Source: a virus
Lineage: Duplodnaviria; Caudoviricetes
Reading direction: 5' to 3' (one strand)
Length of the DNA stretch: 53,821 nt
IMG/VR virus record: IMGVR_UViG_3300037993_000169
Span: 1-53,821 of that record
Shown: positions 9,652 to 51,867 of the stretch, one piece after another
How positions within the stretch are numbered: the stretch's first letter is position 1
Layout: every line of letters starts with the position of its first letter
Translations under genes and position numbers: made by a program
Notes under the pieces: model-generated
The model's database searches: none
The model's input: only the letters and a program-made list of their open reading frames with translations
What the model was told of the DNA's origin: nothing

Positions 9652-9653
9652 GA

Positions 9654-26099: not shown

Positions 26100-26110
26100 C
26101 GGCGCGTCAA

Positions 26111-26134: not shown

Positions 26135-26154
26135 AACTTAAACAGGGGGCCTGC

Positions 26155-27117
26155 ATGGGTAACCGTTCCACGATAGGACTTGCCATGATTGTCAAAAACG
26201 AAGAGGAAAGAGTCGGCGCGGCTCTCGATTCCGTCAAAGGCCTTGACGAATTGAAGGTGTTGGACACCGGCTCGACGGACAAAACGGGCGAGGTAGTGCG
26301 TGATCACGGCGGAGATTTTATTGAGGGCTATATTTGGAACCAAAACTATGCAGAAGCCCGGAACAAGTCCATAAGGCTCTGTACCACCGATTGGATTTTG
26401 TATATCAACGCGGGCGAAAGAATGGACCCCGGCGGAGTGGATGAGTTGAGGCGTAGCATTGGCCTTATAGAAGAGGGATACCCGCAGATACAGGGCGGCG
26501 ACGTGCTGATGTATAACGCCGCCAACCCCTCAGATGCATTTCCGGGTACAAGGCTCATCAAAAACAGCCCGGACATCTGTTTTAACGAGAAGTACCGCAT
26601 TCACGAATACCCGAATGTGCTTCAAAAAGCGGATTTGAGAGACGCCGTGAGGGTCAGTTTCAGGCCCCGCCCCGCAGGCAACGGCGATTACAACGAGCGC
26701 CTTTTCATCATCGAACAGATGGTCAGGGAAGACCCGCACGATCTGAGGCTACACTACATCGCGGCCAGGGAATATCAGGTCAACAAGTTCTATCCCAACG
26801 CGATCTATTTTTACGACAGGTATCTCAGGACGAGGACTGAAAAAGCTTTTTGGAATGAGAGGGCCGAGCTTGCCGACGTGTATTTTTCACTTGCCTTGTG
26901 TCTTTATGAGATGCGCGAATGGAAGCCGGCAAAAGTCAATCTTGCTCTCGCCTTGACTGTCAATGCGGATTTCAAGGAAGCGGCTCAGCTCCTGGCTAAA
27001 ATAGCCAGCGAGGATGTTGACGACCCCAATGGGGAGTTGAATGCGGGACGGTGGGCCTACATATCGGAAGCGGCACAGAATAGAAAAATGGGCTTTAAGT
27101 CCAAAGGAATCTTCTGA
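26155..27117 (+). CDS. Family 2 glycosyltransferase with TPR-like C-terminus
   Basis: AMIVKNEE, VLDTGSTDKT, W..NYAEARN, DWILYINAGE and RIHE, then DPHDLRLHYIAAREY and further TPR-like helices; resembles protein (flagellin) glycosyltransferases. Confidence 0.88.
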   Translation: MGNRSTIGLAMIVKNEEERVGAALDSVKGLDELKVLDTGSTDKTGEVVRDHGGDFIEGYIWNQNYAEARNKSIRLCTTDWILYINAGERMDPGGVDELRRSIGLIEEGYPQIQGGDVLMYNAANPSDAFPGTRLIKNSPDICFNEKYRIHEYPNVLQKADLRDAVRVSFRPRPAGNGDYNERLFIIEQMVREDPHDLRLHYIAAREYQVNKFYPNAIYFYDRYLRTRTEKAFWNERAELADVYFSLALCLYEMREWKPAKVNLALALTVNADFKEAAQLLAKIASEDVDDPNGELNAGRWAYISEAAQNRKMGFKSKGIF

Positions 27118-28521: not shown

Positions 28522-29987
28522 AGATTGATTTTTTGTCTCCTTCCACCGACTACGCAGGCAGATCCCCGGACTGGATCGGGAATCGCTGTGTCAACTGGTA
28601 CCTCGAAGTCTCGGCGGGAGGCCCAGGCAGCAAGTCAAAACTGATACTCATCGGCTCGCCGGGCACCGTCCTTGCTTTTACCGTGGGCGTAGGACCCATC
28701 CGGGGGATGCACGTCTTCAACAACACGCTTTTCGTCGTCTCGGGAGAACAGCTTTTCTCTGTCCCACCCGCAGGCACAATCCCCTTGGTGCTCGGTACGC
28801 TCTTGACGTCGGTCGGCCGCATCGTCATAAAAGACAACGGCATCAAGGACGCGAACGATATCGGCGGAAATCAGTTGATGATAGTCGACGGGGTTGAGGG
28901 CTATATCTACAACATTTCGACGGGGGCCTTCAGCACCATCACGGGCGGCGGATGGCCGGGCACCCCTTCGAACCTCGAATACATAGATGGCTATTTCATC
29001 ATCCCGGTTGTCAACTCCATGAGTGCCTTTGCCTCCAATCTCTATGACGGTACGACTTGGAACGCCCTTGCAACATCGCCCGTCGAGGCTGCCCCGGATG
29101 TCCTTCAGGCACCTATGAACAGCCATGACCAGCTTTTCATGCTGAAGCAATACACGTCCGAAGTCTGGCAGAATATGGGGACCGCCCCTGCGGCAGGCTT
29201 CCCTTTTCAGCGGATACCCGGCGCCGTATTCGACTATGGCACCTCGGCCCCCTTATCCGTCGGGCGCGGAGATAATTCTTTCTTCATGCTCGCCAACCAG
29301 CGGAACAACGACGGCGGGGAGTTTGTCGGCGCGGTCGAATTCAACGGCAGCTTTCAGATCATCAGCCCCCCCGGCATCACCTACCAGATGTCCTTATGGC
29401 CCACACTGCTCGATGCCTTCGGCTATACCTATTCCGACGGCGGGCACACCTTCTACGTCGTCACCAGCCCGAGCGGCAACCAGACCTTTGTTTATGACGC
29501 CAGTACCCAGCTCTGGCACGAAAGATCGACCTACACGGGCTCACCCTACACAATCGGTCGGCACATAGCCAGTTGCTACGCCTACTTCAACGGCATGCAC
29601 CTCGTGGGGGATTATGCGAGCGGGAATATCTACCAGATGTCCTCAAGCATTTACCAGGACAACGGCAGCCCCCTTGTGTCCATGCGCGTGGGCGGACACG
29701 TCTATGACCCCGAGAACCTCTCGCCCATCTTCATCAGACAGTTGACCGTCGATGTAGAAACGGGCGGCGGCATCGTCGGAAGCGAGGAACCCGCCAGTAT
29801 GGCTATGGCATTCTCTGCGGACGGTGGGCATACCTTTTCAAACGATTACGTGCGCTCGATAGGCTCGGGAGGGCAATACGGCAAGCGCGTCGTCTGGTAC
29901 GAGATCGGGTCATTCGTGGATTTTGTACCGCGGCTGACGATCAGCGACAACTGTCAAAGGAATGTTATGGGAGTATATGTCCGATGA
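28518..29987 (+). CDS. Tail nozzle/packaged-DNA stabilisation protein (P22 gp10-like)
   Basis: RCVNWY, GPIRGMH, YIDGYF, SEVW, GHTFYV, TFVYDASTQLWHER and SADGGHTFS. Confidence 0.9.
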   Translation: MKIDFLSPSTDYAGRSPDWIGNRCVNWYLEVSAGGPGSKSKLILIGSPGTVLAFTVGVGPIRGMHVFNNTLFVVSGEQLFSVPPAGTIPLVLGTLLTSVGRIVIKDNGIKDANDIGGNQLMIVDGVEGYIYNISTGAFSTITGGGWPGTPSNLEYIDGYFIIPVVNSMSAFASNLYDGTTWNALATSPVEAAPDVLQAPMNSHDQLFMLKQYTSEVWQNMGTAPAAGFPFQRIPGAVFDYGTSAPLSVGRGDNSFFMLANQRNNDGGEFVGAVEFNGSFQIISPPGITYQMSLWPTLLDAFGYTYSDGGHTFYVVTSPSGNQTFVYDASTQLWHERSTYTGSPYTIGRHIASCYAYFNGMHLVGDYASGNIYQMSSSIYQDNGSPLVSMRVGGHVYDPENLSPIFIRQLTVDVETGGGIVGSEEPASMAMAFSADGGHTFSNDYVRSIGSGGQYGKRVVWYEIGSFVDFVPRLTISDNCQRNVMGVYVR

Positions 29988-30226
29988 TTACCCCCGCCCC
30001 GCTCAATATCCCGATATCGCCCAAGGGGCCGAGCGTCAGTGACCCCGCGTGGATGAACTGGTTTAACCTCGTGGACCGCCTGCCCGTGTATGTCACGGCG
30101 ACATTGCCGGCAGCGGGGACGAAGATGGACGGGAAGCTTATTATGGAGAACACGGGCACCGGGGCGAACCTCATCATGTATACCGGCGGCGCCAGGTACA
30201 GGATAGTAGGGGGGACAGCGTTCTAA
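29984..30226 (+). CDS. Hypothetical tail-associated protein
   Basis: ATGA-coupled to the gp10-like gene; W..WF motif. Confidence 0.65.
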   Translation: MITPAPLNIPISPKGPSVSDPAWMNWFNLVDRLPVYVTATLPAAGTKMDGKLIMENTGTGANLIMYTGGARYRIVGGTAF

Positions 30227-30396: not shown

Positions 30397-30900
30397 ATGC
30401 TCATTTACCGGCACGAGATTCTTACCGACCGCCTCATAGAAGAGATGGAAGTTATGTTTGACCTCTACCTTGAGGAAGTGGCCGCCCCCTTTCATGACTT
30501 CCCGTGGGATGTGAATTGGGGACTTTACAAAGGGTTTCAAGAAGCCGACAGCCTTCGCATCATAGCTGGTCGCACCGAGGTGGGGCAGTTAAAAGCCTTC
30601 GCCGTGGCGGTCATTGGGCAGCATCCGCACTACGCTTGCATCCACGCAACGGTGCCGCTCTTTTTTCTCCACCCCGATTTCAGGAAGGGCATGGAAGGCG
30701 TCAGGCTCCGGAACATGATCGAAAAGCTTGCGGCCGATTCGGGGGCACAGTTGATTTTAATGCACGGAGGTCATCACAACCGCGTATGGAAACTATTCGA
30801 GGCCGGAGGTTTTCAGGACTTCGGACAATACGGGGTTAAGGTCCTCCCCAACGGGCCGTTAGGTACTCGTCCTATTTACAAGACGAAGAGAGGTGCGTAA
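30397..30900 (+). CDS. GNAT-fold acetyltransferase-like protein
   Basis: FFLHPDFRKGMEG (acetyl-CoA motif A) and KLFEAGGF; sits just before the ejection genes. Confidence 0.8.
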   Translation: MLIYRHEILTDRLIEEMEVMFDLYLEEVAAPFHDFPWDVNWGLYKGFQEADSLRIIAGRTEVGQLKAFAVAVIGQHPHYACIHATVPLFFLHPDFRKGMEGVRLRNMIEKLAADSGAQLILMHGGHHNRVWKLFEAGGFQDFGQYGVKVLPNGPLGTRPIYKTKRGA

Positions 30901-36726: not shown

Positions 36727-38355
36727 ATGAGTCTTCGTGTCGCAATAAAAACCTCTCACGGCTTCATCACCGGCAACGCGACCGACAGCCACGACTCCTT
36801 GATAGAGAAGCGGCACATGCGCGGGGTCAAAGAGGAGCAGCACGGCTTTACTCCTGACGGCCGGCTCTTTCTCGACCGCATAGCGGCAATCAGGTGGATC
36901 GCAGTCAACGAAAAAGACGTCTTCAAGAAGCTGATCGGCCGGGTGGATTCGAAGGGGCTCTACTCCGCGCTCTACCATGAAGTCAAGGGGATCGGACACA
37001 AGGAGCCGGAGGCACCGGTTGTTCACGAGCCGTCGAAGGCCCCAGACGTGTCAAAAATGAAGGCCATCGTAGTCGACTACGGCTATCACACCTACATGGC
37101 GGACCGGCTTTCCCGCGAATATGGGGAAGTTTTCTATTACCGTGCGGATTGGCGCGGCTTTTTCCCGACCAGCGACAAACAGAAAGTGGGGCACGGCTTC
37201 AAGAACTATGAACGCATCCTGAAGTTTTGGGATTACGTCGACAAGGCCGATATCGTAATTTTCTTTTCGCTCTATGATGACGACCTGCAGAAAGCCCTTC
37301 GCAAGATGGGTCACACGGTCTACGGTCCGGGGCCAGGATATACCGAAACGGATAAATGGCTGCTCTACCATGTGCTTCTGAGCGGGACCGGGAAAGAAGA
37401 TAAGGACCTTCTGAAGTTCTACGGCCTCGACGGGCTCAGTGTTAATCTGCCCGTCATCCCGACCGAGCTTATCGTGAGCCTGGATAGCCTCAAGAAGCGG
37501 TTGAAGGATGCGAAAGACCTTTATATTACCCCTCGATACACTTACGACCGCGGCGACATGGAGACGGAGCACTTCGAGGACTTCGAGAAGTTTATTACCG
37601 TGCTCCGGGAACTGTCCTACGAAACGGAGTACGAAGAAGAAGAGAAAGAGTTTATCGTCAGGCCGAAGGTAGAAAGCTCTTGTGAGTCCGGATACGATGA
37701 GTTTCAGATCGACGGGCAGAGTTCTCCCTATGTCACCATGGGGAACGAGAACAAGGACGAGACGTATATCTGCAAGGCCGTCAAGCTCTCGGAATTGCCG
37801 GAAGCATTGGAGAAAATACGCGCAGCCATGGCGCCGGTATATGCAAAGCTCGGCTATCGGGGGAACCACTCGACGGAAGTCCGTTTTGATGAGAAAGGCA
37901 CCGGGCTTTTCCTCGATGACACATGCAGAAAAGGGCAACCCCCCGGCGAGATATGGTCTGAACTCTGGCAGGATTACGGTGCCAACATCTACCAGGTGGC
38001 GAAGGGAGAGACCCCCAACATGAAGCCGGTAGCGAAATATGCTGCGCAGATAAACCTGCATAGCCCGTGGCTTGTCAATAATTGGGTCCCCGTAAGTTAT
38101 CCAAAGGAAATCGCGCCATGGGTGAAGCTGAGAAACAACACCGTAGTGGGGGGCCGTGAATATTGTCTTCCCTTCGACAAAGAAAAGACTCTCGGGTCGG
38201 TCATCGGCCTGGGGAACACAGTGGACGAGGCGGTGAAGAACTGCCTGGAATACCTCAAAGAGTTTTGGGCGCACAAGCTCTATGCGAAAGAGGAATCCTT
38301 TGAAGAGGTAAAAAAAGCGATGAAGGCGGGGGAGCAATGGGAAATAAAGCTATGA
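36727..38355 (+). CDS. ATP-grasp-like protein (PurD-like fold) with an extra N-terminal domain
   Basis: Pre-grasp region IVVD.G...ADRL..E..EV.YY, ADIVIF...D...LRKMG..VYG...E.DK; later GYRG..STEV and LDDTCR.G.PP. Confidence 0.6.
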   Translation: MSLRVAIKTSHGFITGNATDSHDSLIEKRHMRGVKEEQHGFTPDGRLFLDRIAAIRWIAVNEKDVFKKLIGRVDSKGLYSALYHEVKGIGHKEPEAPVVHEPSKAPDVSKMKAIVVDYGYHTYMADRLSREYGEVFYYRADWRGFFPTSDKQKVGHGFKNYERILKFWDYVDKADIVIFFSLYDDDLQKALRKMGHTVYGPGPGYTETDKWLLYHVLLSGTGKEDKDLLKFYGLDGLSVNLPVIPTELIVSLDSLKKRLKDAKDLYITPRYTYDRGDMETEHFEDFEKFITVLRELSYETEYEEEEKEFIVRPKVESSCESGYDEFQIDGQSSPYVTMGNENKDETYICKAVKLSELPEALEKIRAAMAPVYAKLGYRGNHSTEVRFDEKGTGLFLDDTCRKGQPPGEIWSELWQDYGANIYQVAKGETPNMKPVAKYAAQINLHSPWLVNNWVPVSYPKEIAPWVKLRNNTVVGGREYCLPFDKEKTLGSVIGLGNTVDEAVKNCLEYLKEFWAHKLYAKEESFEEVKKAMKAGEQWEIKL

Positions 38356-38804
38356 TCAGCATCCGAGAAGCGACTCTATCCGATCTCGACGCCATCATGT
38401 CAGTAGAACAGGCGTGCTTTAAGGTGGACGGGTTTAACAAAAGGCAGTTCCGGCGATTGATCGTTACCTCGACGTCGAGGGTTTTTGTGATAACCCACAG
38501 GGACAAAGTTATCGGCCATGGTGTCGTACTCGTGACCCCCCTTCGAAACGGACAAACCAAGGGGCGAGTCTATTCCCTTGCGGTCCTTCCCGAGCACGAG
38601 CACCAAGGTTACGGCCGGCAGCTACGCGCTCACATGTGGGCCTATCTCGCCTCAATTTCCGTCGCCTATATCACGGCTGAATGTCACGCGGAGAATAAGC
38701 GACTGGTAAAAAGCAACACGTTGGCTGGGTACAGAATAACCGGAGGGCTGAAGGGCTACTACACCGACGGTTCCGACGCCTTCAGATGGAGAAAAGATCT
38801 ATGA
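38352..38804 (+). CDS. RimI-like GNAT acetyltransferase
   Basis: IREATLSDLDAIMSVEQACF, YSLAVLPEHEHQGYG, N...GY and GYYTDGSDA. Confidence 0.88.
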   Translation: MISIREATLSDLDAIMSVEQACFKVDGFNKRQFRRLIVTSTSRVFVITHRDKVIGHGVVLVTPLRNGQTKGRVYSLAVLPEHEHQGYGRQLRAHMWAYLASISVAYITAECHAENKRLVKSNTLAGYRITGGLKGYYTDGSDAFRWRKDL

Positions 38805-38941
38805 CCCTTCAAGACATCCGTCAATCCCTTATCGCCGTCGATCAGTCGTACATCGAGCATCGGATCACCGACGCCGCATACGTGAGCGAGGTGCACCGGC
38901 TCATCGAACAGTTGAAACATTCCACAGAGGTGACACAATGA
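38801..38941 (+). CDS. Hypothetical protein (46 aa)
   Basis: ATGA-coupled on both sides, exactly filling the gap. Confidence 0.5.
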   Translation: MTLQDIRQSLIAVDQSYIEHRITDAAYVSEVHRLIEQLKHSTEVTQ

Positions 38942-40962
38942 GCGTAAGCATTGCGCCCTATCCCCGTTTCAAGGCATTCTACCCCGGCACGGGGAACCCT
39001 CTTTCCGGAGGGCAGCTCTGGACCCTTCAGCCCGGGTCTGTAGGTTTCGGCAACCTGAAGGCCAGCTATACGGATTCCTCGGGCCAGACGGTGAACACCA
39101 ACCCGGTGATCCTCGATCCGAGCGGCGAGGCCGATGTGTGGCTCTCCGGCTTTACCAAGCTTGTGCTGCAGGACTCGCAGGGCAATCAGATATGGAGCCG
39201 GGACAACGTCTCTTCCATGCCCGCTCCGAGTGGCGCAACGACTCAGGAAAGTCAATGGATAGAGCAGTCGTTGGCTTACACCTATATCAACTCCACACAG
39301 TTCTCCGTCCCCGGCGATCAGACCGCTATTTTCATGGCGGGGGGTCGGATTCAGGCCACAATTTCCGCGGGGTTAATCGAGGGTATGATCACGGGCGCCG
39401 TTGCAGGCTCCATCCCGGTCGCCACGGTTGTGACAGTCGCATGGGACTCAACGGTCCTGGACGCAAGTATGTCGTCAATCGCAACCGGGATCATCCCTCC
39501 CGGAACATCCTCCTTTCCTTATCAGGTGGGGGAGGAAATGGTTTGGCCCGGCCCAAAACTCCCTCCGGGCAGGTGGATGGAAGAGGATCACTCGGCGGTG
39601 GGCAGGGTAACCTACGCCGCCCTGTTCAATTTCCTTGCAATTCAGACCTCGGGGAATACGCACGGCTCCACGACCATCGACAGCATTCCAGACACCACGG
39701 GCATGGGCGCGGGCATGCCTATTTCGGGCATAGGGATCGTCAATGAAGCAATCGGCAGCAGCAACCTCATCGCATCATGGGCAAGCCCCACGGGCACGGG
39801 GAGTGTGACCCCCGTCAACGTCAGCTACGGGACGTTTACCGTCTCCGGCGCAAACATCGCAAGCGCGGAATATTCCGGCACATCACCTGCGGCACAGACG
39901 GCCACCCTGACTATTTCCGGGCTCACGGCAGGACAGACCTACTCTCTCAGCTTCACGCCCATCGTGAGTGGGCAGGCGCCTGTTCTCACGGCTACTTCAG
40001 GGATCAGTCAATGCGCGTCAATACCGGGCGTTGTGAGCGGCGTTGTCGAGCAGTTTTACTTTGTCCCCTCCGGCAGTTCAGCTGTCTTCACTTTTACCAA
40101 CACGGCGGCGAGCACGTGGGCGACCGCGAGCACGAGCTGCAACGCTACGGGATACGACTCATTCACTAGCTCGGGTCCCAATATCACGTCTGCGGTCAAT
40201 ACGGCAGGGACACTTGAGACGGCAGATACAGCCGCCATTACAACCGTTATCGGGCAAATGTATCAACTCACCGCGACATCGGCCCCCGTAACTGGGCAAA
40301 CCATGACTTTGTCAGGCTCGGATAAGGCGATACCATCGATTACGCTTGCGGCGGGTCCTCAGAGCATCACCTTCATTGCCACCGGAACTTCTCTCGTTTT
40401 GACAGTGACCAATAACGGTGCAGGCAGCAATGGCTGCACGTTCACTCTCTACAAGTACACCCCGCAAACCATAATAACCGCAGTAAACAGCGGCAGCCAG
40501 ATCATCATAAGCCAGCCCGCAACAAGCTCGAATGTCGCCGTCGCCATCGTCGTCGCGCCCCACGGGGTAGGGGACGGGTCGACCACCTTCAACATTCCCG
40601 ATGCGCGCGGAAGAATGATAATGGGTGCAGGACAGGGGAACACGGGCGAGGGAGAGTGGACGGGGACAACCCAGGTGCCGGGAGTCGCGGGCGGTGCGGA
40701 GACGCATACCCAGGCAGCAGATGAGGTCGGCCCAGCAACAATTACGGTTACCGATCCAGGTCATGTACATCCTGCTTCATCAGGCAACTTCTTAGTAAGT
40801 GGAGGGGGGAGTTCAATAGCGGCAGGGACATATGCTTTTCAGCAAGCCACTAACACCGGCAGCAGCATGACCGGCATATCTGGAGTCGTAGGCAATCCCG
40901 TACCTACGCCGATGAATATCACGAGTCCTTATACAGTAAGAAAGATTCTCATTCGTTACTGA
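38938..40962 (+). CDS. Tail fibre protein with N-terminal attachment domain and split tail-collar domain
   Basis: PLSGGQL...YTDSSG...NTNPVILD..GEA N-terminus; collar halves VGEEMVWPG...TYAALF and GVGDGSTTFNIPDARGR; C-terminal MNITSPY...ILIRY. Confidence 0.85.
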   Translation: MSVSIAPYPRFKAFYPGTGNPLSGGQLWTLQPGSVGFGNLKASYTDSSGQTVNTNPVILDPSGEADVWLSGFTKLVLQDSQGNQIWSRDNVSSMPAPSGATTQESQWIEQSLAYTYINSTQFSVPGDQTAIFMAGGRIQATISAGLIEGMITGAVAGSIPVATVVTVAWDSTVLDASMSSIATGIIPPGTSSFPYQVGEEMVWPGPKLPPGRWMEEDHSAVGRVTYAALFNFLAIQTSGNTHGSTTIDSIPDTTGMGAGMPISGIGIVNEAIGSSNLIASWASPTGTGSVTPVNVSYGTFTVSGANIASAEYSGTSPAAQTATLTISGLTAGQTYSLSFTPIVSGQAPVLTATSGISQCASIPGVVSGVVEQFYFVPSGSSAVFTFTNTAASTWATASTSCNATGYDSFTSSGPNITSAVNTAGTLETADTAAITTVIGQMYQLTATSAPVTGQTMTLSGSDKAIPSITLAAGPQSITFIATGTSLVLTVTNNGAGSNGCTFTLYKYTPQTIITAVNSGSQIIISQPATSSNVAVAIVVAPHGVGDGSTTFNIPDARGRMIMGAGQGNTGEGEWTGTTQVPGVAGGAETHTQAADEVGPATITVTDPGHVHPASSGNFLVSGGGSSIAAGTYAFQQATNTGSSMTGISGVVGNPVPTPMNITSPYTVRKILIRY

Positions 40963-40974: not shown

Positions 40975-43512
40975 ATGAAACACTTTTTTGCCGCACTCCT
41001 CATCCTTGCCGCCCTCTTCATTGGGACGGCGTACGCACAGCAACAGTTTTCACAGGCGCTTTCGAGCCAATGCTGGAACTTTGACAATGTCCCGACATCT
41101 CCGACCTACGGAACGTGGGTCTATAATTCCCAGTGCACGCAAAGTTTGAATCTCGGTTTTGTCGATGCTCGTGGGTTCAAGACCCTCAATGCTGCCCAGG
41201 TGACGGCGGCTCTTCAAGGTCTGCAAATTAAAGTTTTTGAGTACATCCCTCTTGGAGCGCCCCTGACGACGAGCGTGCCGATCAGCGTCGAGAGTAGCGG
41301 GGTTGTCGACACAAAGGGTTATGCTCTCACAATCAGCGCCCCCTGGTGCGACAAAATGGCCTCGGCATCGTCACCGATCATTGGTACCGGGGCAATTACG
41401 TGGAATGTTAGTGATTGTGGAGGCTTCTATTCTTTCATTGACTCTATCGTCAACTCTTCTGGTTCAGTTTCCCTCATCAACGATTCCGCATCCCCCGGCA
41501 ACAGCATGGTGTATGGCACAAACTCATCAGGAGTGAAGGGCTGGCAGACTGGCGGCTCGGGTTGTAGCGGGGGAGTCTGTTCGGGCTCGGAGCTTGACCT
41601 CACAGATATCTCCGGCGCGGGCGATAATGCAAAGCTCCAGAACTATCAGGGACAGATTCACTTGCTCACGCAGTCCGCCAATATTTCCGGGGGCTACACG
41701 CCATCTCCCTCAAACGACTGGAACAACCCCGCGAAGCACTACGCATTTCTCCCCTCGAGCATCTTCGACCTCGGGGAATTCCACGCCTATGGGCCTGGAT
41801 ATTTCCTTGTCGGCGATCACTCGCCGATCACCGGCACGTCGATCAATGACATGGCCCTGGCCGTCTGGGACCATGTCATGACTCACGATGTTTCCGGTTG
41901 CACGGCTTCGGGCGTGCCTTGGTCTTGCTGCACGGGGTCAGGATCGGGAACGTGTTCTTCTGTGGATTGGGCAGGATGGTTCGAAGCTCAGGACTACTCT
42001 TCTCTCGCAGATTCGATGATGTTCGGAACCGTGAGCGGAGCAACGCAAGCCCACCAAAGTGAAGTGCTGGGGACTGATGGGTTGTCGTATTCGTGTATCC
42101 TCGGCTACACGCCGTCGGATACGACGACGCAGCCGCCCAGCGGCGTCAATGCTCATCTTTATTGGTGCAGCGCGGCACCTGGAAACATCCTCTACAGCAG
42201 CACTTGCAACAACGGCAGCGGGGATATGGTCTGGACCATCGGCACGCAGTATCATGCGTCCGGATACGGCGTGGGAGAACTGTTCGGTTTGACGGGTTTT
42301 GCAAGTGCCTGGGGCACGCCTTCCTTAATGGTTGGCACGACCGGGGAGATTGAAGTCGGTAGCGACCTCTGGGATACGCTGGGAGGCGGAATAGCCGTTG
42401 CGACCTATTCCCCGATCTTGGCGTACAAGAGCGATAATGAAACTCCTGTGTCCACAGGAACCATGATCGGCAACAGCATCCCCAAGATAGTGGGGGGTGC
42501 GATTCAGGTGGGTCAGCAGATGTACGATCCCTTGATCTTGCAGACGGCAGTCAGCCAAGTCATGGGATCAGATGGGCACGTCTACGACAATATTTCCGCC
42601 TACCAGCCCACGAACACGACGACCGCCCCGGTCAGCGGAGGGTCATACGCGACTTACTGGACTCGCCACAAGAATACACAGGGGGGCTACACGGACAGCG
42701 GCCAGAACCCGCTGCCCTTCGTGATTGGCAGCCTCTACACGCCTGGTGGTGCAGTAGTGCAGTTGCAATCCGATTCCTATCAGACGGGCTCTTTCACTCA
42801 AACCGGTTTAATCCATGCGCTGGTTAACGGCATAGACGTCGGTATTCCTTTCGGCGCTTGGACCGGACCGGTATTTGCCGGGCAGCTGATGAATTCGCCG
42901 ATGGTCAGTAACCAGTGGGCGTTCGCTGCTGGGAACGGGAGCGGTGCGGGCGGCTTCAGCATATCTGGCGGGGTGCTGACTCTTGCCCCATATGCAGGCG
43001 GTTCTTCGACGGCGATTGCCACACAGGCCATGAAGTGGCCTGTGGCCGGGCGGACCTACACGGTCAGCATCGATGTCACCGCCCTAGTAGATACCGTTGC
43101 CCCGATCGTGATATCAGGATTAGCCAATGGCGGGACCGGCTATGCTCAATACGATGTGTTCTGGATAACGCAGGCGGGCGCAGCAAACGGCGAATTTGTT
43201 GTCGATTCGGTAAATGGGTCAGGGACGATTCTGACCTGTCACATGGCCAATGGCGGGACCGGCTACAGCGTCGCCAACAATCTCCCGACAACCACGAACA
43301 GCGCCCACGGCTCGGGGGCCCTAATGAATATCATCGAGGTAGGGCCTGGCTATCTGGTTTACACGCTCGGGGGCACTCAGGGAGTGCCAATATCCACAAT
43401 CACCACTAACACGCAGAATATCACGGCGGTTAATAATAAACCGTTGGATATCTTTTCGACGGACGGCACCACAACGGCGACCGTCACGTCGATAAGTATA
43501 GTGTTGCAGTAA
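40975..43512 (+). CDS. Large adhesin/tail-fibre-like protein with a predicted Sec signal peptide and Cys-rich motifs
   Basis: N-terminus MKHFFAALLILAALFIGTAYA-QQ; Ser/Thr/Gly-rich; CTASGVPWSCCTGSGSGTC motif; two V.G.DG..Y...P.SG....YW repeats. Confidence 0.7.
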   Translation: MKHFFAALLILAALFIGTAYAQQQFSQALSSQCWNFDNVPTSPTYGTWVYNSQCTQSLNLGFVDARGFKTLNAAQVTAALQGLQIKVFEYIPLGAPLTTSVPISVESSGVVDTKGYALTISAPWCDKMASASSPIIGTGAITWNVSDCGGFYSFIDSIVNSSGSVSLINDSASPGNSMVYGTNSSGVKGWQTGGSGCSGGVCSGSELDLTDISGAGDNAKLQNYQGQIHLLTQSANISGGYTPSPSNDWNNPAKHYAFLPSSIFDLGEFHAYGPGYFLVGDHSPITGTSINDMALAVWDHVMTHDVSGCTASGVPWSCCTGSGSGTCSSVDWAGWFEAQDYSSLADSMMFGTVSGATQAHQSEVLGTDGLSYSCILGYTPSDTTTQPPSGVNAHLYWCSAAPGNILYSSTCNNGSGDMVWTIGTQYHASGYGVGELFGLTGFASAWGTPSLMVGTTGEIEVGSDLWDTLGGGIAVATYSPILAYKSDNETPVSTGTMIGNSIPKIVGGAIQVGQQMYDPLILQTAVSQVMGSDGHVYDNISAYQPTNTTTAPVSGGSYATYWTRHKNTQGGYTDSGQNPLPFVIGSLYTPGGAVVQLQSDSYQTGSFTQTGLIHALVNGIDVGIPFGAWTGPVFAGQLMNSPMVSNQWAFAAGNGSGAGGFSISGGVLTLAPYAGGSSTAIATQAMKWPVAGRTYTVSIDVTALVDTVAPIVISGLANGGTGYAQYDVFWITQAGAANGEFVVDSVNGSGTILTCHMANGGTGYSVANNLPTTTNSAHGSGALMNIIEVGPGYLVYTLGGTQGVPISTITTNTQNITAVNNKPLDIFSTDGTTTATVTSISIVLQ

Positions 43513-43524
43513 ATGGGAGGGACC

Positions 43525-43752
43525 ATGAAGCATTTCTTGATTCTGTTTTTTGCGGCCTTTCTCTTCGTGCCGATCACAGCTTCACGTGCCGACGACGAGA
43601 CGGTGACCATGCTGCATCGTAGCACTATCGCCGCACCTAAGTCCGATACGCGATCCGCCGATGCGATCAGGGCCAAGAAGGCACGGGAGATCGAGAGGAA
43701 GCGGATACATTCAGAGAGCATACGGCAGGCCGTCAAGGGCCTGCATAGATAA
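43525..43752 (+). CDS. Small protein with predicted signal peptide
   Basis: MKHFLILFFAAFLFVPITASRA-DD; SD GGAGG. Confidence 0.6.
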   Translation: MKHFLILFFAAFLFVPITASRADDETVTMLHRSTIAAPKSDTRSADAIRAKKAREIERKRIHSESIRQAVKGLHR

Positions 43753-43762
43753 GGAGAAGGTT

Positions 43763-43831
43763 ATGCGCTATCTTGTGATCGTCGTTTTTATTGCGGCCAT
43801 GATGGGCTTGGCATCGATATTGCCGATCTAG
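43763..43831 (+). CDS. 22-aa hydrophobic peptide
   Basis: SD AAGGAG; MRYLVIVVFIAAMMGLASILPI. Confidence 0.35.
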   Translation: MRYLVIVVFIAAMMGLASILPI

Positions 43832-43884
43832 AGCGCAGGTTCCCGGAAGCCGGTGCTTCCGCAAAGCCATAAAGGAGGACTCCC

Positions 43885-44283
43885 TTGAAAAAAGTTTATC
43901 TCTCCCTCATCCTCATTGCCTTTGTAATCGCCTACTGTACCGTGACGTTTGCGCAGAATGTCGCCTCAGTGACAGCCGTTGGCAACAGCCCCGTCTCGTC
44001 TCAGGTGGTATGCGGCAGCACCCCCACGCTGCTCTATAGACCCACTCAGGCAGGATGGGCGACCAATGCGCCGTATGGCCGGGTGTCTATCTGGTTTGAG
44101 AACCAGAGTAACGTGCCGGTCTACATCGCCCCTCGAAGCGACATATCCACGAGCAATGCGGCTATACTGCTCACCATTCAGGGGCACACCTTCAACTTTG
44201 ACCGGACGACGGGCGGCAACGTGACCTGGTACTGCATCACGGCGAGCGGAAGTGCGACGGTCGGGGTCCTGGAGGAAAAGTGA
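43885..44283 (+). CDS. Beta-rich protein with predicted signal peptide
   Basis: TTG start after AAGGAGG; MKKVYLSLILIAFVIAYCTVTFA-Q; two Cys in the mature part. Confidence 0.7.
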   Translation: MKKVYLSLILIAFVIAYCTVTFAQNVASVTAVGNSPVSSQVVCGSTPTLLYRPTQAGWATNAPYGRVSIWFENQSNVPVYIAPRSDISTSNAAILLTIQGHTFNFDRTTGGNVTWYCITASGSATVGVLEEK

Positions 44284-44798
44284 TGAAGCAATACCGAGTC
44301 ATCCTTATTGTCTGTCTCCTTCTGAGCCCTGTTGCGGCTTTTGCCGGCGGGTCATCCTCACCCCCTTCCGGTTGGAATTACAATTTCCAGACCAACACCC
44401 TGACGCCGGTCGGGGGGGCGGGGGTGAGCGTCACCGTTGCTATCGACTGCCACGCGAATTGCTCTCCTACCGCCGCGCAGCTTACAAGCGGCGCTGTTCT
44501 CTATAACACTGGCCAGACCACGGGCAACTCTGCCGTCACCCTCCCCGCCGTCTCCGGCTGGTCGACAGGTTCGTTTTCCCTCGACGTGACGGCCACGACT
44601 ACCGGAATGCCCGTGGGAAACATCACGGTCAGCTCGACAACAGCCAATATCTGCCTCGATGAAGCGTGTGGCACGACATACACGACCCTGACCGTGACCA
44701 CGCCTACAGCGGATACGAGCCTTGTGTGCCGGGCCTTTGGCAACGGGGCGGATATCCACTGTTATTCGGTAGGCGCGATGAGCGCCACGGGGTCATAA
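44280..44798 (+). CDS. Thr/Cys-rich protein with predicted signal peptide
   Basis: MKQYRVILIVCLLLSPVAAFA-G; six Cys in the mature region. Confidence 0.7.
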   Translation: MMKQYRVILIVCLLLSPVAAFAGGSSSPPSGWNYNFQTNTLTPVGGAGVSVTVAIDCHANCSPTAAQLTSGAVLYNTGQTTGNSAVTLPAVSGWSTGSFSLDVTATTTGMPVGNITVSSTTANICLDEACGTTYTTLTVTTPTADTSLVCRAFGNGADIHCYSVGAMSATGS

Positions 44799-44799
44799 G

Positions 44800-46572
44800 A
44801 TGAAGCGGCTTCCCTCTCTCTGCCTGTTCGCCCTTCTTTTTATGCCGGGTGTCGCCATGAGCGCGACGTGGTACGTCAACCCCTCCGGTGCTCAGTTTGT
44901 CGGCACTCAGGGCACCTATCAGATAGGCAACGACTCTACCGGGAGCGGCACCCTTGCGACGCCTTACGCCACTATCGGCAAGGTCATAACACAGATGGCC
45001 TCAAACGACGTGGCCTATGTTGCCGCCTCGACCGACACGGAATCCGTCATCACTTTCACTACGGGGCAGAGCGGAAAGAACCTTACTATCACGGCAGACG
45101 GAACGGTCAATATCGCCCCAGCAAGCGGGTCCGCCTGCATCTATACGACCACCAGTTTTACAAGCGGCATCCTCACTTTTAACGGCCTCAATCTTGTAGC
45201 GACCGGCACAACTTACGATTTGCAGGTCAAGGGACTCGGAACAATAGTTTTCAACGGCTCCGGCGCAGCGGGCAACATCAACGGGCAAGGGACGATAGGC
45301 AACTCCAGCATGACGGGGAACATTATACTGTTCCAATCGTCAACCCCCGGCCCCACGGTGACATTCAACAATTATACGCTTCAAAATGGATCAAGCGTTT
45401 CCAACGAGACAATATCGATCTATGGCTACGTCAATTTTATATGGAACGGGGGAACGCTCAAGCTCGGCCCCAGCAATGGGATTCATGTTGGCACTACCAT
45501 CACGGGCTGTAATTTTACGGTGCAAAACGCTGTTATCGACAGCACAGCAATAACTTCATCCTCATATTATATGTGGTATGGTGGGGTTTTTAGCCTCGGA
45601 GCCGTCACGTTTAGCGGCAATACGGTTGCCTTTGGAGAGGGGCAAGGCATCGGCATCGACCGGGGCGCAAGTTCTGTCACCATTCAGAACAACACCCTCA
45701 CAACTACAGCCAGCACGGTCAGAACGGCCATAGCGGTAGGAACAGACGGTCCAACTGCAGACGCCCCAGCCATACCTACCGCCACTATTTCGGGCAATAA
45801 AATCTATTTTAACGGTTCGGGCCATTCACACGGCTTGCTAATGGGGATAGGACTCACAAGCGGAAACGCCTATGACAATCTTATAATCGGAGCGGATTAC
45901 GGAATAGTCGTCAAATCTACCGGCGTTTCGGTCCATCATAATATCGCTATAGGCCCCCAGTCTGGGGGGCTTGGCGGTTTGTACGTCAGGCAGGCTCAAA
46001 CCAATACCATTCTCAATAATACGTTCTACGTGACTGCCGGGCCTTCGGTCACCTTCGACCACGAGGTGGGATCGGCAGGGCCACCGTCAGGCAACATCAC
46101 GGAGAACAATATCTTTTACCAGCCGGTAAGCAATACGACAACCGTCCTTTCAGACAGCGAGGGAAGCACGAACGGGAACATGATCGGGAACCAGTTTGAC
46201 TACAACGTCTATTATGCGCCGGGCGCGACCTTCTTTGCATCACTTAATTGCGGGGCAACGCCGCCCACTACTGCGGCTAACATATCGGCCCTAAGAACGG
46301 CGTGGGCGACCTACAGCAGCAGCTATCCGACGAACGACGCGCACAGCGTTGCGAGCGACCCGAAATTTACAAACAAATCAGGCACCTACTCTCTGGCAAC
46401 AGACTTCACCCTCGCCTACAATTCCCCCGCGATCAAGGCCGGAACGAACGTGGGACTCACGACAGACTACCGGGGCCGTCCAGTACCGGCGACACCGGAC
46501 ATAGGCGCGATGCAGCACCTTTACAGCGTGGGGAGGGTGGGCAGCCAGTGGATAGGGGTTTATGACCCATAA
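44800..46572 (+). CDS. Right-handed beta-helix (pectin-lyase-like) protein with predicted signal peptide; candidate depolymerase/adhesin
   Basis: MKRLPSLCLFALLFMPGVAMS-ATWYV; GND...GT...PYATI; Asn-ladder repeats (IQNNT, ISGNK, NNTF, NNIF); C-terminal DFTL..NSPAI.AG...DY.G...PDIGA. Confidence 0.85.
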   Translation: MKRLPSLCLFALLFMPGVAMSATWYVNPSGAQFVGTQGTYQIGNDSTGSGTLATPYATIGKVITQMASNDVAYVAASTDTESVITFTTGQSGKNLTITADGTVNIAPASGSACIYTTTSFTSGILTFNGLNLVATGTTYDLQVKGLGTIVFNGSGAAGNINGQGTIGNSSMTGNIILFQSSTPGPTVTFNNYTLQNGSSVSNETISIYGYVNFIWNGGTLKLGPSNGIHVGTTITGCNFTVQNAVIDSTAITSSSYYMWYGGVFSLGAVTFSGNTVAFGEGQGIGIDRGASSVTIQNNTLTTTASTVRTAIAVGTDGPTADAPAIPTATISGNKIYFNGSGHSHGLLMGIGLTSGNAYDNLIIGADYGIVVKSTGVSVHHNIAIGPQSGGLGGLYVRQAQTNTILNNTFYVTAGPSVTFDHEVGSAGPPSGNITENNIFYQPVSNTTTVLSDSEGSTNGNMIGNQFDYNVYYAPGATFFASLNCGATPPTTAANISALRTAWATYSSSYPTNDAHSVASDPKFTNKSGTYSLATDFTLAYNSPAIKAGTNVGLTTDYRGRPVPATPDIGAMQHLYSVGRVGSQWIGVYDP

Positions 46573-46695
46573 GGTCCGATAGCGGGCCTACCGACATCGG
46601 CACGGAGGTAGAGATGGCACCATTCAAGAAGTCGGACGGTGACGGTGAACCAATAATGACGGATTCGACATGCGGCACACGTGGAGGATGAACTA

Positions 46696-47031
46696 ATGGC
46701 GGTTCCGATGGAGAACACGCACTATCTTATCGAATTTCTTATCGGCCTCACAGGTATGGCGGGAGGGTATACAGTGGCGTGGTTCACTCTCGGCAAGAAA
46801 GTGCAACAGTTGGATAACATCGAGCGGAAAGTGGAAGACATTCAGGGCACCCTTAAACCTGGAATCCTTCCATCAACGCGGATCAAGATCGACTCTCACG
46901 AGGCAAGGATATGCGCCCTCGAAGGGCAGACGTTTTGTGCGGGGCATCCATTGCTGATGAGCAGGGTGGAACATATAGAGGCAGGGGTGGATCGAATCCT
47001 CGATCATATGCTGGAAGGGGCAAGAAAATGA
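46696..47031 (+). CDS. Single-TM plus coiled-coil protein (lysis region, holin-like?)
   Basis: One hydrophobic segment followed by heptad-like sequence; SD GGAGG. Confidence 0.55.
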   Translation: MAVPMENTHYLIEFLIGLTGMAGGYTVAWFTLGKKVQQLDNIERKVEDIQGTLKPGILPSTRIKIDSHEARICALEGQTFCAGHPLLMSRVEHIEAGVDRILDHMLEGARK

Positions 47032-47195
47032 CCCCCCTTGGAAACGCGCTCATCGACCAGTGGAACGCCTCAGACGGGATGACCAGGGCGGAGATGGTGA
47101 AGCACCTGGTAGAGAAATACCCTGACCTGGTATGCGCCGTGATGAGGTCGGAGGGCAAATGCAGGAAGGAGAAAGATCATGAAGCCGGAGGATAA
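47028..47195 (+). CDS. Hypothetical protein
   Basis: ATGA-coupled; overlaps the endolysin start. Confidence 0.45.
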   Translation: MTPLGNALIDQWNASDGMTRAEMVKHLVEKYPDLVCAVMRSEGKCRKEKDHEAGG

Positions 47196-47649
47196 AGACG
47201 TCTTCTACGCCCTTAGCGACGACCAGGCCACAATCCTCACCGTATGGGGAGAGGCCCGGAATCAGTCTATCCTCGGCAAGCAGCTTGTGGCCCAGGTGAT
47301 CGACAACCGTGCGACGAAGCATCGGTTGACCCCAAAGCAGGTGTGCTATCAACCGAATCAGTTTAGCTGTCTCATCTCGACCGATCCCAATTACCCGAAG
47401 ATGCGGGAGATCGCCGGGGACTGGGAGAAGGCGCTGCAATCAAATTCCTCCCTGCAGGAATGCGCCCATACGGTGAGGGGACTCGATGACTTCACGACTC
47501 GGCAGGTGGTGATGGTGAAGCTCATGCGTGCCACATTTTACCGGGTCGTCGGGACGGCGAATGAGTGGTTCGACAATGCAATCAAGGCCGGGAAGCTAAA
47601 AAAGGTGTGTGTCGAAGGGAGTCACGAATTTTTCCGGGAGGTGGTGTGA
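47179..47649 (+). CDS. Endolysin, SleB/Hydrolase_2 family cell-wall hydrolase
   Basis: LTVWGEARNQ...G...VAQVIDNR, VC.QP.QFSC, ATFY and G.H.FF. Confidence 0.9.
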   Translation: MKPEDKDVFYALSDDQATILTVWGEARNQSILGKQLVAQVIDNRATKHRLTPKQVCYQPNQFSCLISTDPNYPKMREIAGDWEKALQSNSSLQECAHTVRGLDDFTTRQVVMVKLMRATFYRVVGTANEWFDNAIKAGKLKKVCVEGSHEFFREVV

Positions 47650-49665: not shown

Positions 49666-51867
49666 TCATAACCTCCCTATGGCCGGGAATAAGTCTTTAA
49701 TGACGGGTATATCCCCCTTGTAAGCGACTATGATTTTTTGCTCTCGCTTTGGAAATTTCCGCATATTCATGGTTTTTTTTGCGTGAGCAAGGCGGGTAAA
49801 CTCCGATTCGACGTATACGATTTTGTTGTAAACACTTAAACCCCATGACTTTAGGAAGATTTCTGTCTCGGATTCATGACAGTAATACCCCCCGTTCTTG
49901 TCCCTGCTGTCGCCTGTCATCACAACGAAAAAGCGGTTGTCATTCAGGTGTGCTAAGGCTATTTTGTACCCTGAGAACAAGGCGTCCCTGAATTGATCGT
50001 AGGTACTGAAGGAATTTATCTCACCTTCCGGCGGCTGCCCATCATAGTCGATATATTTTTCCACCTTGTAGTACGGGGGACAGGTGAACATCAGGTCAAA
50101 CATGCCTTCCGGCTCGTAGGTCGAGCTATCGCTCTTTATCCATTTTGCGCTGTTGAGGTCCTGGCATATCATGTTGTTGGCATCGCATTGGTTTTGCCGG
50201 ATTTCGCTCGCAATGTACTCATAGTCGTATGAGCCAGCGATAAACCCGAATTGAACTCCACCGCCAAAAGGGTTGTAAACCCGTCGGCCATCTCGTGGCA
50301 TGAAGAAACGAAGGATGACTTCACATGCCACGGGGTCGAGCACTGAAGCGTTACCGTTGTGGGCGTGTCCTGTTACTACATTGGCAAAGCCGTTTGTCCC
50401 CTGCCAGCAGCCGTCACGGGAAGCGTACAAGGGATTAGCCACACCGCGCAAGGCCCCGGCTTCTTCGATCTTTGCGTTCCAATCTTTCTTGAGTTGTAAC
50501 CATTTGGCCTTGTTGGGTTCCCATACGTTTGTCATGGTGATATGGGCGAGTATCTTCATGCGGATATCTTCGAGCTTGCCGTGAACCATGTAGTGAAAGC
50601 CGGACATTTCCAAGTAAGTTTCAAAGCCTATGCTCTTAAACAATGCCGGTGTCTCAAACGTACTTTTCGGATTGGTCGTCATTATCGCCGGATAGTTGTT
50701 TGTGTTATGAGAAATAGCCTCCAGAACCATACGCTTATACAGGTCGTCGGTATGTCTATCTGGGCGGATAACCGACTGAAGCAGACAAAATTCTTTGACA
50801 ATATCGTTGTTCTGAAAAGTCATAAAACCCGCAAACTCGTCGTTAATTTTCAAGATGATCGCCGAATGAATTTGCATGTTTTTTCTGGCCGCCCGGTGCG
50901 CTATACCGTCCTCAAGGGCCAATGTTGCCACGTCCGTCTCATATCCCGAGCCAATGACGGACGGGACATAGAAAAACTCCGCCTTGTCGTTGAAAAGCGT
51001 CTCCTGACAGATTGCCATTCCCATTATTTCCTCCTCTCTTCCTGTTTTTGGTATCCCCGACATTTCTATCCCGCATTGGTCGGGGCAGCGGGTACATGAT
51101 CCTAAGTAAACCTGCCCGTGTAGCGATACGGTCCTTCCGCCACCTACAGAATCGTCGCGCCGAGTTATCAGAATGTCACCATTAAGCACGTGAGGATTGG
51201 ACAGGCGCACCCTAAGCGGATTGTCAATGACAGGCGCAAGTGACAAAAGATAGTCCTGCTTTTCCTTACGTGACCTCGCCCATTCTGATTTTCCGTAATT
51301 GCAGGTAACGACTCGGCACACACTACGGACGCCTGATGACCGCAGGCGTTCAATCTGAACGATACGGTGTGACAGTTCTGCGTCACTATCAAGGCCGCTC
51401 GTTGAGGTGTTCACGACAGCTTTAAGCCAGCGTAAACCATCAATTTGTTCATCGGTCAATATCTCCCAGTGTTTTGTGATGATTACCGGCGTTTTTTTCG
51501 CCCACCTAAAATCTCGCATTGTCGAGACTGTGTGCGTCCAGTCGTGGCACGGGTCACCAGCGGTTCCGATACGATACCAGCTTACAGGATGAGCCATCAT
51601 GATTTTTGTAAGTGTTGTTCTATGCCACAAGCCGCAGAACTGCCTACTCACGCTTTTTGTGAAGTCAATACCGTACCTGGCTGCGGTCTTCGCCGCATAA
51701 CATTCGCCATAGCACCCCCCGTCCGGATAAGCCTTCATCCCGAAAGAGCACCCTTTTATTGTGTCTACATCGAGTACCCCTTTACCGTTCTCGGTCACGG
51801 TAAGAACAGGGAGATAACGCCTCGGTGATTGAGGTTCCGGCTCATAAAATAAGGATGCCTGTTTCAT
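49666..51867 (-). CDS. Three-domain protein: SPL-like radical SAM, GNAT-like, and amino-DNA methyltransferase
   Basis: N-terminal C-x11-C-x3-C, RIGTAGDP and IITK; middle AGFMTF...LQSVIRPDR...FKSIGF; C-terminal SVLDPV, YNPFGGG (motif I) and FTCPPY (motif IV). Confidence 0.75.
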   Translation of the reverse strand: MKQASLFYEPEPQSPRRYLPVLTVTENGKGVLDVDTIKGCSFGMKAYPDGGCYGECYAAKTAARYGIDFTKSVSRQFCGLWHRTTLTKIMMAHPVSWYRIGTAGDPCHDWTHTVSTMRDFRWAKKTPVIITKHWEILTDEQIDGLRWLKAVVNTSTSGLDSDAELSHRIVQIERLRSSGVRSVCRVVTCNYGKSEWARSRKEKQDYLLSLAPVIDNPLRVRLSNPHVLNGDILITRRDDSVGGGRTVSLHGQVYLGSCTRCPDQCGIEMSGIPKTGREEEIMGMAICQETLFNDKAEFFYVPSVIGSGYETDVATLALEDGIAHRAARKNMQIHSAIILKINDEFAGFMTFQNNDIVKEFCLLQSVIRPDRHTDDLYKRMVLEAISHNTNNYPAIMTTNPKSTFETPALFKSIGFETYLEMSGFHYMVHGKLEDIRMKILAHITMTNVWEPNKAKWLQLKKDWNAKIEEAGALRGVANPLYASRDGCWQGTNGFANVVTGHAHNGNASVLDPVACEVILRFFMPRDGRRVYNPFGGGVQFGFIAGSYDYEYIASEIRQNQCDANNMICQDLNSAKWIKSDSSTYEPEGMFDLMFTCPPYYKVEKYIDYDGQPPEGEINSFSTYDQFRDALFSGYKIALAHLNDNRFFVVMTGDSRDKNGGYYCHESETEIFLKSWGLSVYNKIVYVESEFTRLAHAKKTMNMRKFPKREQKIIVAYKGDIPVIKDLFPAIGRL

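Follow-up and report, generated by a model that had tools for sequence, protein, structure and literature searches.

The window analysed here is the whole of the IMG/VR virus record IMGVR_UViG_3300037993_000169, 53,821 bases of DNA classed as linear and 74% complete; positions are those of this stretch. Judged from its gene content, the window phage is a P22-like podophage, and between its tail fibre gene (38938-40962) and its lysis genes (46681, 47179) lies a cassette of five adjoining genes whose products start with Sec-type leaders. A first-pass annotation had described five leader-bearing open reading frames (ORFs) in this position, with a hydrophobic ORF of 22 amino acids (aa) among them, and all six are present; the fourth leader-bearing gene, first placed at 44280, is taken here to start at 44283. 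The cassette comprises the following features.

40975..43512, + strand: 845-aa protein with a leader and a predicted cleavage site after residue 21.
43525..43752, + strand: 75-aa protein (79 aa if read from 43513); the leader starts at the 43525 ATG and is followed by a highly charged helical tail.
43763..43831, + strand: 22-codon hydrophobic ORF with an AAGGAG ribosome-binding site, present also in the 99.6%-identical contig L003.
43885..44283, + strand: 132-aa jellyroll protein, predicted to be exported, with a TTG start.
44283..44798, + strand: 171-aa protein (172 aa from 44280) with a leader, rich in Ser, Thr and Gly, with six Cys in its mature part.
44800..46572, + strand: 590-aa predicted right-handed beta-helix protein with a leader, a candidate polysaccharide lyase or hydrolase.

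Neighbouring genes of the cassette overlap or are separated by 1 to 54 nucleotides, and a Shine-Dalgarno-like motif precedes every start except that at 44800, which abuts the preceding stop codon. The 22-codon ORF has a strong ribosome-binding site; we treat it as putatively coding, possibly for a small membrane peptide. The N-terminus of the 75-aa protein would be either a signal peptide or a signal anchor. The description of most mature parts as rich in Ser, Thr and Gly holds for four of the five proteins (fractions of 0.28-0.38), with 0.16 in the 75-aa protein. The mature parts contain, in gene order, 14, 0, 2, 6 and 3 Cys. The pairing of Cys read from the sequence earlier thus agrees with an even number in three of the four Cys-bearing proteins, although parity itself is weak evidence, because 17 of the 30 other Cys-bearing genes of the window also have an even count. 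Better evidence for disulfide bonds comes from the Cys pairs that are invariant in protein families, namely those of the 132-aa protein and of the N-terminal domain of the 845-aa protein.

The leaders were called by a crude, home-made n/h/c-region rule and not by SignalP. The rule looks within the first ~35 residues for a positive n-region, an uncharged hydrophobic core of 7-15 residues and small residues at -3/-1; it was applied to every ATG, GTG and TTG start of ORFs of at least 40 aa in all six frames, and 31 of 1789 starts passed. All five cassette genes pass it on the + strand, with scores of 4.17-5.93, so that the Sec-type leader anatomy first noticed by eye is recovered in each of them. 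The other passing + strand ORFs (9775/9787, 21035 and 52604) score just 2.0-2.94; the cassette genes are the sole strong signal-peptide genes of the window, and the chance that five such genes among the 41 listed would adjoin each other is about 5e-5. A glutamine directly follows the predicted cleavage site in two of the five. No lipobox with a +1 Cys was found in plausible genes, a pattern scan of the whole window having matched only antisense ORFs inside other genes.

Homologues of the cassette proteins retain the leader as a property. A word-based search returned ten homologues of the 132-aa protein with 46-71% identity, and in the resulting family the hydrophobic leader is kept in all eleven members, an A/Q cleavage junction in nine, and two Cys are invariant. 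Pairwise identity in this family falls from 0.63 in the mature columns to 0.30 in those of the leader; such drift of sequence with retention of hydrophobicity is the signature of a cleaved leader. Leaders are likewise kept in three of three proteins with the N-domain of the 845-aa protein and in five of five genes that follow the 132-aa gene; for the 590-aa and 75-aa proteins no homologues were found. An AlphaFold2 model of the 132-aa protein, built from the alignment of the 11 sequences (predicted local distance difference test score, pLDDT, 80), shows a helical leader joined by a disordered linker to a jellyroll of eight strands. Its closest folds in the PDB are Ena1B (Z 8.4) and the PM2 spike protein P1 (Z 8.0), and the best Foldseek E value is 1.3e-3; we rejected any assignment of function from these likenesses, since Z values of this size lie in the range of a commonly shared strand arrangement. 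Among the predicted viral structures of BFVD there were 77 matches at E<=1e-3, mostly to uncharacterised phage proteins of 83-100 aa, with template modelling (TM) scores of up to 0.84 by target, and the mature domain therefore has a fold widespread among small phage proteins, in this case with a leader attached.

The 132-aa gene occurs in five IMG/VR contigs of related phages, two of which (L008 and L009) are near-identical where they overlap, so that we count four distinct relatives: L007, L008/L009, L010 and L011. A survey of related podophages, which the first-pass annotation had proposed as a check, thus found the 132-aa gene followed by a leader-bearing gene in each of the four. By BLASTP the relatives share with the window phage the portal (36-38% identity), the hub (54-57%), an ejection protein (61-65%), a 554-aa protein (36-63%) and a 542-aa protein (27-54%); the coat is 53% identical in L008, the available stretches of the other relatives being without a coat match. 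The N-domain of the tail fibre is 58-65% identical in this comparison (37% in L010), and the anchor as such, fibre residues 1-195, has 44-64% identity to the fibres of L007, L009, L010 and L011.

The gene after the 132-aa homologue has in all five phages a leader and then a (G/S)-G-x-S-S-(P) start, beyond which the sequences diverge completely. In the window this second position is filled by the 171-aa protein. Its counterparts are, in L007, a 595-aa protein with weak matches to the glycosidase families GH32N and BNR_2; in L009, a fibre-like protein of 414 aa; in L010, one of 254 aa with a small domain like that at the C-terminus of the 845-aa protein (E 0.019); and in L011, a protein no longer than 70 aa. 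Four Sec-type genes follow one another in L010, and a fifth leader-bearing gene there, for a 250-aa protein (11628-12380 of that contig), has the twin-arginine-like leader T-R-R-R-F-I-R, so this cassette member may use the twin-arginine translocation (Tat) route rather than Sec. The cassette stands just upstream of the endolysin region in four of the five distinct phages (window, L007, L009 and L010), and directly or nearly 3' of the tail-hub gene in three of them (L007, L009 and L011). Compared in this way, the cassette is conserved in the lineage and is not a random insertion.

The 845-aa protein is built as a mosaic: a HMMER search with it returned 251 proteins at E<=1e-3, each of which matches part of the query only. 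Residues 1-183, leader included, match two proteins, P0007 (58% identity) and P0010 (55%), and Cys33 and Cys54 are invariant among them. Residues ~155-200 hold a motif repeated in many fibre-like proteins (phrog_36859). The central domain, residues 205-535, matches three proteins, all with leaders, one of which carries a tail-fibre N-terminal motif (Mtd_N and several tail-fibre PHROGs). Residues 700-800 form a display domain of ~100 aa that is found inside J-like central fibres, hub-like proteins, a tail sheath and a head-decoration protein. The AlphaFold2 model of the whole protein is poor (pLDDT 48), with confident stretches that look beta-solenoid-like and generic (Z <=7.2), and the ESM Atlas returned nothing for this protein. 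A likeness of the N-terminal 'Q-Q-...-C-W' pattern to that of a leader-bearing L010 protein (8871-9971) was not significant (E 0.42) and was withdrawn.

P0010 consists of a leader, an N-domain of the 845-aa type and a Pfam Beta_helix body, and lies on three metagenome contigs that are identical over the 20 kb compared. On one of these, 154 kb in length, its neighbours are seven glycosyltransferase genes (families 1/4 and 11), five methyltransferase genes, Bac_transf, DegT and other sugar-pathway genes; by this gene content the locus is one of bacterial surface-polysaccharide (exopolysaccharide) biosynthesis. The taxon of the contig is given by the depositor's name for the metagenome-assembled genome, 'Dehalococcoidia', an unconfirmed label. 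Residues 98-183 of P0010 match the tailspike of L011, itself without a leader, at 48% identity (E 1e-12); this match suggests that modules move between the spikes of phages of this clade and a cellular exported enzyme.

The 590-aa protein is the beta-helix that the first-pass annotation had seen among the cassette products, here identified through the structural neighbours of its ESM Atlas model and an NCBIfam match. The model has a predicted TM (pTM) score of 0.87, and its neighbours align at TM 0.60-0.73 over 408-498 residues. They are bacterial Beta_helix, Pel9A-like and DUF1565 proteins; the aligned part is Beta_helix or Pel9A-like in six of the ten rows listed, and a viral protein occurs in one of the ten clusters listed. 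Pfam Beta_helix (PF13229) is matched at E 4e-5 and 23.7 bits, under its gathering cut-off of 25.9 bits. Residues 534-571 match NCBIfam choice-of-anchor Q, a domain that marks secreted or surface proteins, with 28.6 bits against a cut-off of 25. In sequence the protein is essentially without relatives. Its helix begins directly after the leader, which leaves no room for a particle-binding domain. This build, from a leader straight into a beta-helix and on to a choice-of-anchor Q end, is that of bacterial secreted proteins, and we regard the protein as a secreted beta-helix of bacterial type and a candidate polysaccharide lyase or hydrolase.

Searches by family and by sequence added little beyond these matches. 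No family scored above the cut-off for any of the five proteins in Pfam or PHROGs, nor did NCBIfam have a family for the four other than the 590-aa protein; PADLOC had no match for any of the five. Sequence searches of the PDB with the cassette proteins gave nothing significant, the RecA rows returned for the 171-aa protein being low-complexity linker matches that we rejected. No paralogy was seen among the five (best E 0.11). No relative came from IMG/VR scans with the 590-, 845-, 542- and 1009-aa proteins or with the alignment of the N-domain, and a scan with the fibre gave a single weak locus, L002. Scans of species genomes with the central-domain and N-domain alignments of the 845-aa protein found nothing, and tblastn with the 590-, 845- and 132-aa proteins had no match in 50,697 phage records.

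The position of the cassette between tail fibre and lysis genes, as first described, is correct, and the flanking genes are:

38938..40962, + strand: leaderless tail fibre, 674 aa (Pfam Collar PF07484, 2.5e-7; PHROG tail protein).
46681, + strand: holin-like protein of 116 aa with one transmembrane segment, at the start of the lysis cassette (46681..47649).
47179, + strand: endolysin, 156 aa (Pfam Hydrolase_2 PF07486, 1.5e-7; PHROG endolysin).

The fibre has no signal peptide by the n/h/c-region rule and, from its domains, is the conventional receptor-binding protein of the window phage. Conventional podovirus fibres and tailspikes, of the P22 gp9 and T7 gp17 type, share with the cassette proteins a modular Ser/Thr/Gly-rich beta build, beta-helix bodies and exchanged distal domains, but they are leaderless and start with a particle-binding domain, whereas the cassette proteins have leaders and lack the anchor of this clade. 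A BLASTP comparison of the five proteins with the fibre anchor (residues 1-195) and with the proteins of the relatives gave no match to the anchor domain. Body modules of the fibre or spike type are present in the 845-aa protein (the phrog_36859 motif and the C-terminal domain) and in the 590-aa protein (the beta-helix), and in none of the three small ones. At the start of the fibre gene (38950-39023) contig depth is several-fold above that of the flanks in four other peat metagenomes, and many contigs diverge on both sides; depth and divergence together suggest a short conserved fibre N-terminus common to several different phages there.

Within the cassette we counted 11 promoter-like sites, against 7.6 +/- 3.0 in shuffled sequence, and 10 terminator-like sites, against 12.8 +/- 3.4; consensus scans of this kind are weak tests. 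The G+C content at third codon positions (GC3) is 0.64-0.72 in the cassette and 0.66-0.74 in the structural genes, and overall G+C matches that of the neighbouring late genes. The first-pass annotation had named a separate lysogenic promoter as the arrangement that would speak against its reading; as far as such scans go, neither an enrichment of promoters or terminators nor a foreign composition was seen.

The closest cultured relatives are distant, with a coat identity of just 28-37% (38 records, all below 60%). One of them, the temperate Xanthomonas podophage PBR31, has the backbone order of the window: GroES-like protein, terminase, portal, scaffold, coat, tubular proteins A and B, acetyltransferase, three internal proteins and spike, with the coat 37% and the hub 34% identical. 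Between its tail spike and its holin lies a single leader-bearing gene, compared with five in the window, and a homologue of the 132-aa protein is absent. The product, orf035 (QIN95346.1), is a fibre-like, Ser/Thr/Gly-rich protein of 269 aa with a typical leader and two mature Cys; it showed no sequence similarity to the five window proteins (tblastn with the 845-, 590- and 132-aa proteins) and carries the depositor's label 'putative structural protein'. The accessible part of the PBR31 paper mentions a signal peptide for another gene only, leaves the leader of orf035 undiscussed and reports no mass spectrometry or virion proteomics. That other gene, orf040, lies near the slot (4931-5578 of the PBR31 stretch L014) and encodes an SGNH esterase or deacetylase with a leader, for which the annotation gives a possible role in O-antigen modification.

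Exported proteins are familiar among phage accessory genes. T5 Llp, Cor of phi80 and T1, and Bor and Lom of lambda are encoded beside tail-fibre genes, are exported, and block receptors or superinfection at the cell surface. All are small lipoproteins or proteins of the outer membrane, whereas the cassette has no lipobox and encodes, five in a row, proteins that include large ones with fibre or enzyme modules. In Porphyromonas gingivalis prophages five genes of unknown function have leaders of the signal peptidase I type, many of which expose an N-terminal glutamine (PMC10367356), as two of the cassette proteins would; those genes belong to another phage family and host phylum and, in the part of that paper available to us, are not described as fibre-like or as a conserved cassette. 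VexL, from Burkholderiales Vi-antigen loci (PMC6003464), and P0010 share with the cassette the order of a leader and then a right-handed beta-helix; they act, as far as the VexL source describes, on the cell's own surface polymer, and are cellular genes of biosynthesis loci, whereas the cassette genes are phage late genes. P0010 shares only its first ~125-145 residues with the 845-aa protein, and PDB sequence searches found no significant similarity to VexL. According to the sections of that paper at hand, VexL is a periplasmic beta-helix lyase that reaches the capsule polymer in transit. Our literature searches, made at listing and abstract level, found no published description of exported tail-fibre-like proteins in tailed phages, the nearest being that of the P. 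gingivalis prophage genes, and the portion seen of a paper on viruses of Tunturi (Acidobacteriota) makes no mention of signal peptides or mass spectrometry.

Export through Sec and signal peptidase I, which the first-pass annotation had proposed, is well supported by the leader anatomy, the leaders kept in homologues and the invariant Cys, and the cassette proteins probably act outside the cytoplasm, the compartment in which the particle is built. The accompanying claim that they form a virion-appendage system is not established. The alternative offered alongside it, remodelling of the host surface or matrix, fits the facts better, given the leaderless fibre, the build of the 590-aa protein and the locus of P0010, while the fibre-type modules and the conservation of the cassette within the structural module still lend some support to a role in the virion. 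We propose that the cassette is expressed late, is exported, and binds or cuts glycans of the host envelope, and give this proposal about an even chance of being right. It is favoured because the 590-aa protein has a bacterial-type build and P0010 lies in a polysaccharide locus, and because the second-gene product of L007 has a glycosidase-like body while an ordinary leaderless fibre, whose anchor the five proteins lack, is already present.

Under this proposal the genes would be transcribed together with the tail-fibre and lysis genes, as their tight gaps and overlaps and the scans for promoters and terminators suggest. Their leaders would route the products through Sec and be removed by signal peptidase I, in keeping with their sequence and their conservation among homologues, and the mature proteins would fold outside the cytoplasm with disulfide bonds, to which the invariant Cys pairs point. 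The two large proteins, of beta-solenoid and beta-helix type, might then bind or cut glycans and, in the periplasm or at the cell surface, trim or mask the host surface polysaccharide late in infection. Progeny might thereby escape being trapped on debris or matrix, and superinfection might be lowered. The conserved core consists of the 132-aa jellyroll and its downstream neighbour, which has a leader and a G-G-S-S-S-P start; the two may be an adaptor for variable partners.

Several observations weigh against a glycan-directed role. Catalytic residues were identified in none of the five proteins, and the PDB sequence search gave no characterised enzyme against which the 590-aa protein could be aligned. 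The building blocks of the 845-aa protein, like those of leader-bearing proteins in the relatives, are virion-fibre modules, and the leader-bearing L010 protein at 8871-9971 ends in a stretch of 131 aa with 40% identity (E 8e-14) to the C-terminus of the window fibre. The place next to the hub, inside the structural module, in three of the five phages is what one would expect of a virion component more than of an accessory. If the host is a diderm, delivery to the periplasm would not suffice to bring a protein to the outer surface, and no additional step was identified. Periplasmic VexL left sensitivity to a capsule-specific phage unabolished, at least in the sections of that report seen (PMC6003464). 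Lastly, the cassette is present in 24 peat or wetland metagenome runs, and none of the 24 is on record as RNA.

Some of these observations speak for exported virion appendages, which would fold in the periplasm and dock at lysis on particles built in the cytoplasm, through the 132-aa protein or the conserved mature N-termini. Besides the fibre-type modules of the 845-aa protein, the distal domain shared by the L010 protein and the window fibre, and the position within the structural module at or near the hub gene in L007, L009 and L011, the conserved start and variable body of the second gene follow the pattern in which receptor-binding proteins evolve, many small phage proteins have the fold of the mature 132-aa domain, and PBR31 orf035 sits between spike and holin under a structural label. 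Yet a conventional leaderless fibre with the clade's anchor is already there and the five proteins are unlike that anchor, the 590-aa protein has no extra N-terminal domain ahead of its helix, the N-domain of the 845-aa protein has its closest relative in a cellular protein encoded in a polysaccharide locus, and no such assembly route was found in the literature searched. We consider such docking possible, though on balance unlikely. Its most far-reaching form, in which this clade of peat podophages would build a second, Sec-exported and disulfide-bonded host-recognition set that the particle captures only at lysis, is in our view doubtful; capture would then use the 132-aa jellyroll or the short conserved N-termini, and the virion would combine a cytoplasm-made fibre with periplasm-made appendages.

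Morons classically occupy the slot between the tail fibre gene and the lysis genes, and the cassette could accordingly be cargo of lysogenic conversion, expressed from the prophage, altering the surface of the lysogen or excluding other phages, and without a lytic role. PBR31, a relative by backbone, is a temperate phage and encodes an integrase and a putative O-antigen deacetylase close to the slot; the window is 74% complete, so that an integrase could lie outside it; and the leader-bearing genes of the P. gingivalis prophages were interpreted in this way, going by the part of the source available (PMC10367356). We nevertheless judge it improbable, as there is no promoter or terminator enrichment and no compositional break, the tight gene spacing suits translational coupling, and the core pair is 45-70% identical across phages, like virion genes and unlike cargo of fast turnover; a Pfam scan of 51 window proteins showed neither an integrase nor a repressor, and PADLOC gave no match. 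Less probable still is that the proteins are not exported. Their N-termini would in that case serve cytoplasmic or virion-internal proteins as membrane anchors or assembly helices, or would stem from wrongly chosen start codons. The home-made rule by which leaders were called leaves room for this, and the 75-aa protein and the 22-aa ORF product could be membrane-anchored and uncleaved. Against it, the starts have ribosome-binding sites, the N-termini have n, h and c regions with small residues at -3/-1, leader sequence drifts while hydrophobicity is kept in all members of the 132-aa family, and three of the proteins have bacterial relatives that share their leaders or bear hallmarks of secreted proteins.

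By common assumption, the assembly of tailed-phage particles takes place entirely in the cytoplasm, and the sugar-cutting enzymes of phages are borne on the particle or freed by lysis. A phage lineage that conserves an exported cassette made of tail-fibre and tailspike modules would depart from one or the other of these views. If the cassette acts on glycans, the phage would treat the sugar coat of its host from within during infection, in a receptor-destroying or matrix-loosening step; if it supplies appendages, part of the particle would mature outside the cytoplasm. Under either reading the comparisons document a traffic of modules between phage receptor-binding proteins and bacterial envelope enzymes. 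PBR31 is a cultured phage in which the question of accessory or appendage can be addressed, and the slot of its orf035 makes the appendage reading directly testable.

The assignment of the window to a P22-like podophage rests on these backbone genes, given by their starts:

11075: terminase.
13513: P22-type portal (PF16510, 4e-103).
22173: scaffold (Pfam/PHROG scan).
23109: P22-type coat (Pfam/PHROG scan).
27775: adaptor (Pfam/PHROG scan).
28518: gp10-like hub (phrog_578).
30900, 31702 and 33542: three ejection proteins, the last with an SLT domain.

No tRNA was found in the window, and the lipobox pattern scan found no lipoprotein spanin. Small transmembrane proteins that resemble the product of 46681 sit upstream of the endolysins in L007 and L010. 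Directly 3' of the hub gene, an 80-aa ORF (29984-30226) has a 'P-A-W-x-x-W' start in common with fibre-like proteins of L010 (8057) and L011 (9254), and may be a small tail adaptor overlooked by length filters. Two GNAT acetyltransferase genes (30397-30900 and 38337-38804) lie in the tail and ejection module; in PBR31 an acetyltransferase gene likewise follows the hub gene.

Between portal and scaffold (15993-21913) the window encodes a family 2 glycosyltransferase (GT2), a radical SAM/SPASM protein, a family 1 glycosyltransferase (GT1), a B12-binding radical SAM protein and an aldo/keto reductase, and a GT2-TPR gene (26032-27117) follows that of the 554-aa protein, its copy in L007 being 69% identical. 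These genes might serve the glycosylation of Ser/Thr-rich virion or exported proteins, or a change of host polysaccharide. On the - strand, 49666-51867 encodes a 733-aa protein whose C-terminal part is a DNA methyltransferase (phrog_498, 4e-35), preceded by a long N-terminal region without a family match.

Contigs of four other peat runs, which are among the 24, are nearly identical to the window, with 27-30 of 30 bins covered and six listed single-letter differences. Two joints seen in them (44281>44940 and 44847>45235) have sides of 30 letters and one contig each, and were not relied on. The second assembly, L003, shows 16 differences, of which 12 fall inside 36 bases at 44412-44447 (residues ~44-55 of the 171-aa protein) and include two compensating single-base indels; this stretch would be a local variable patch or a recombination tract.

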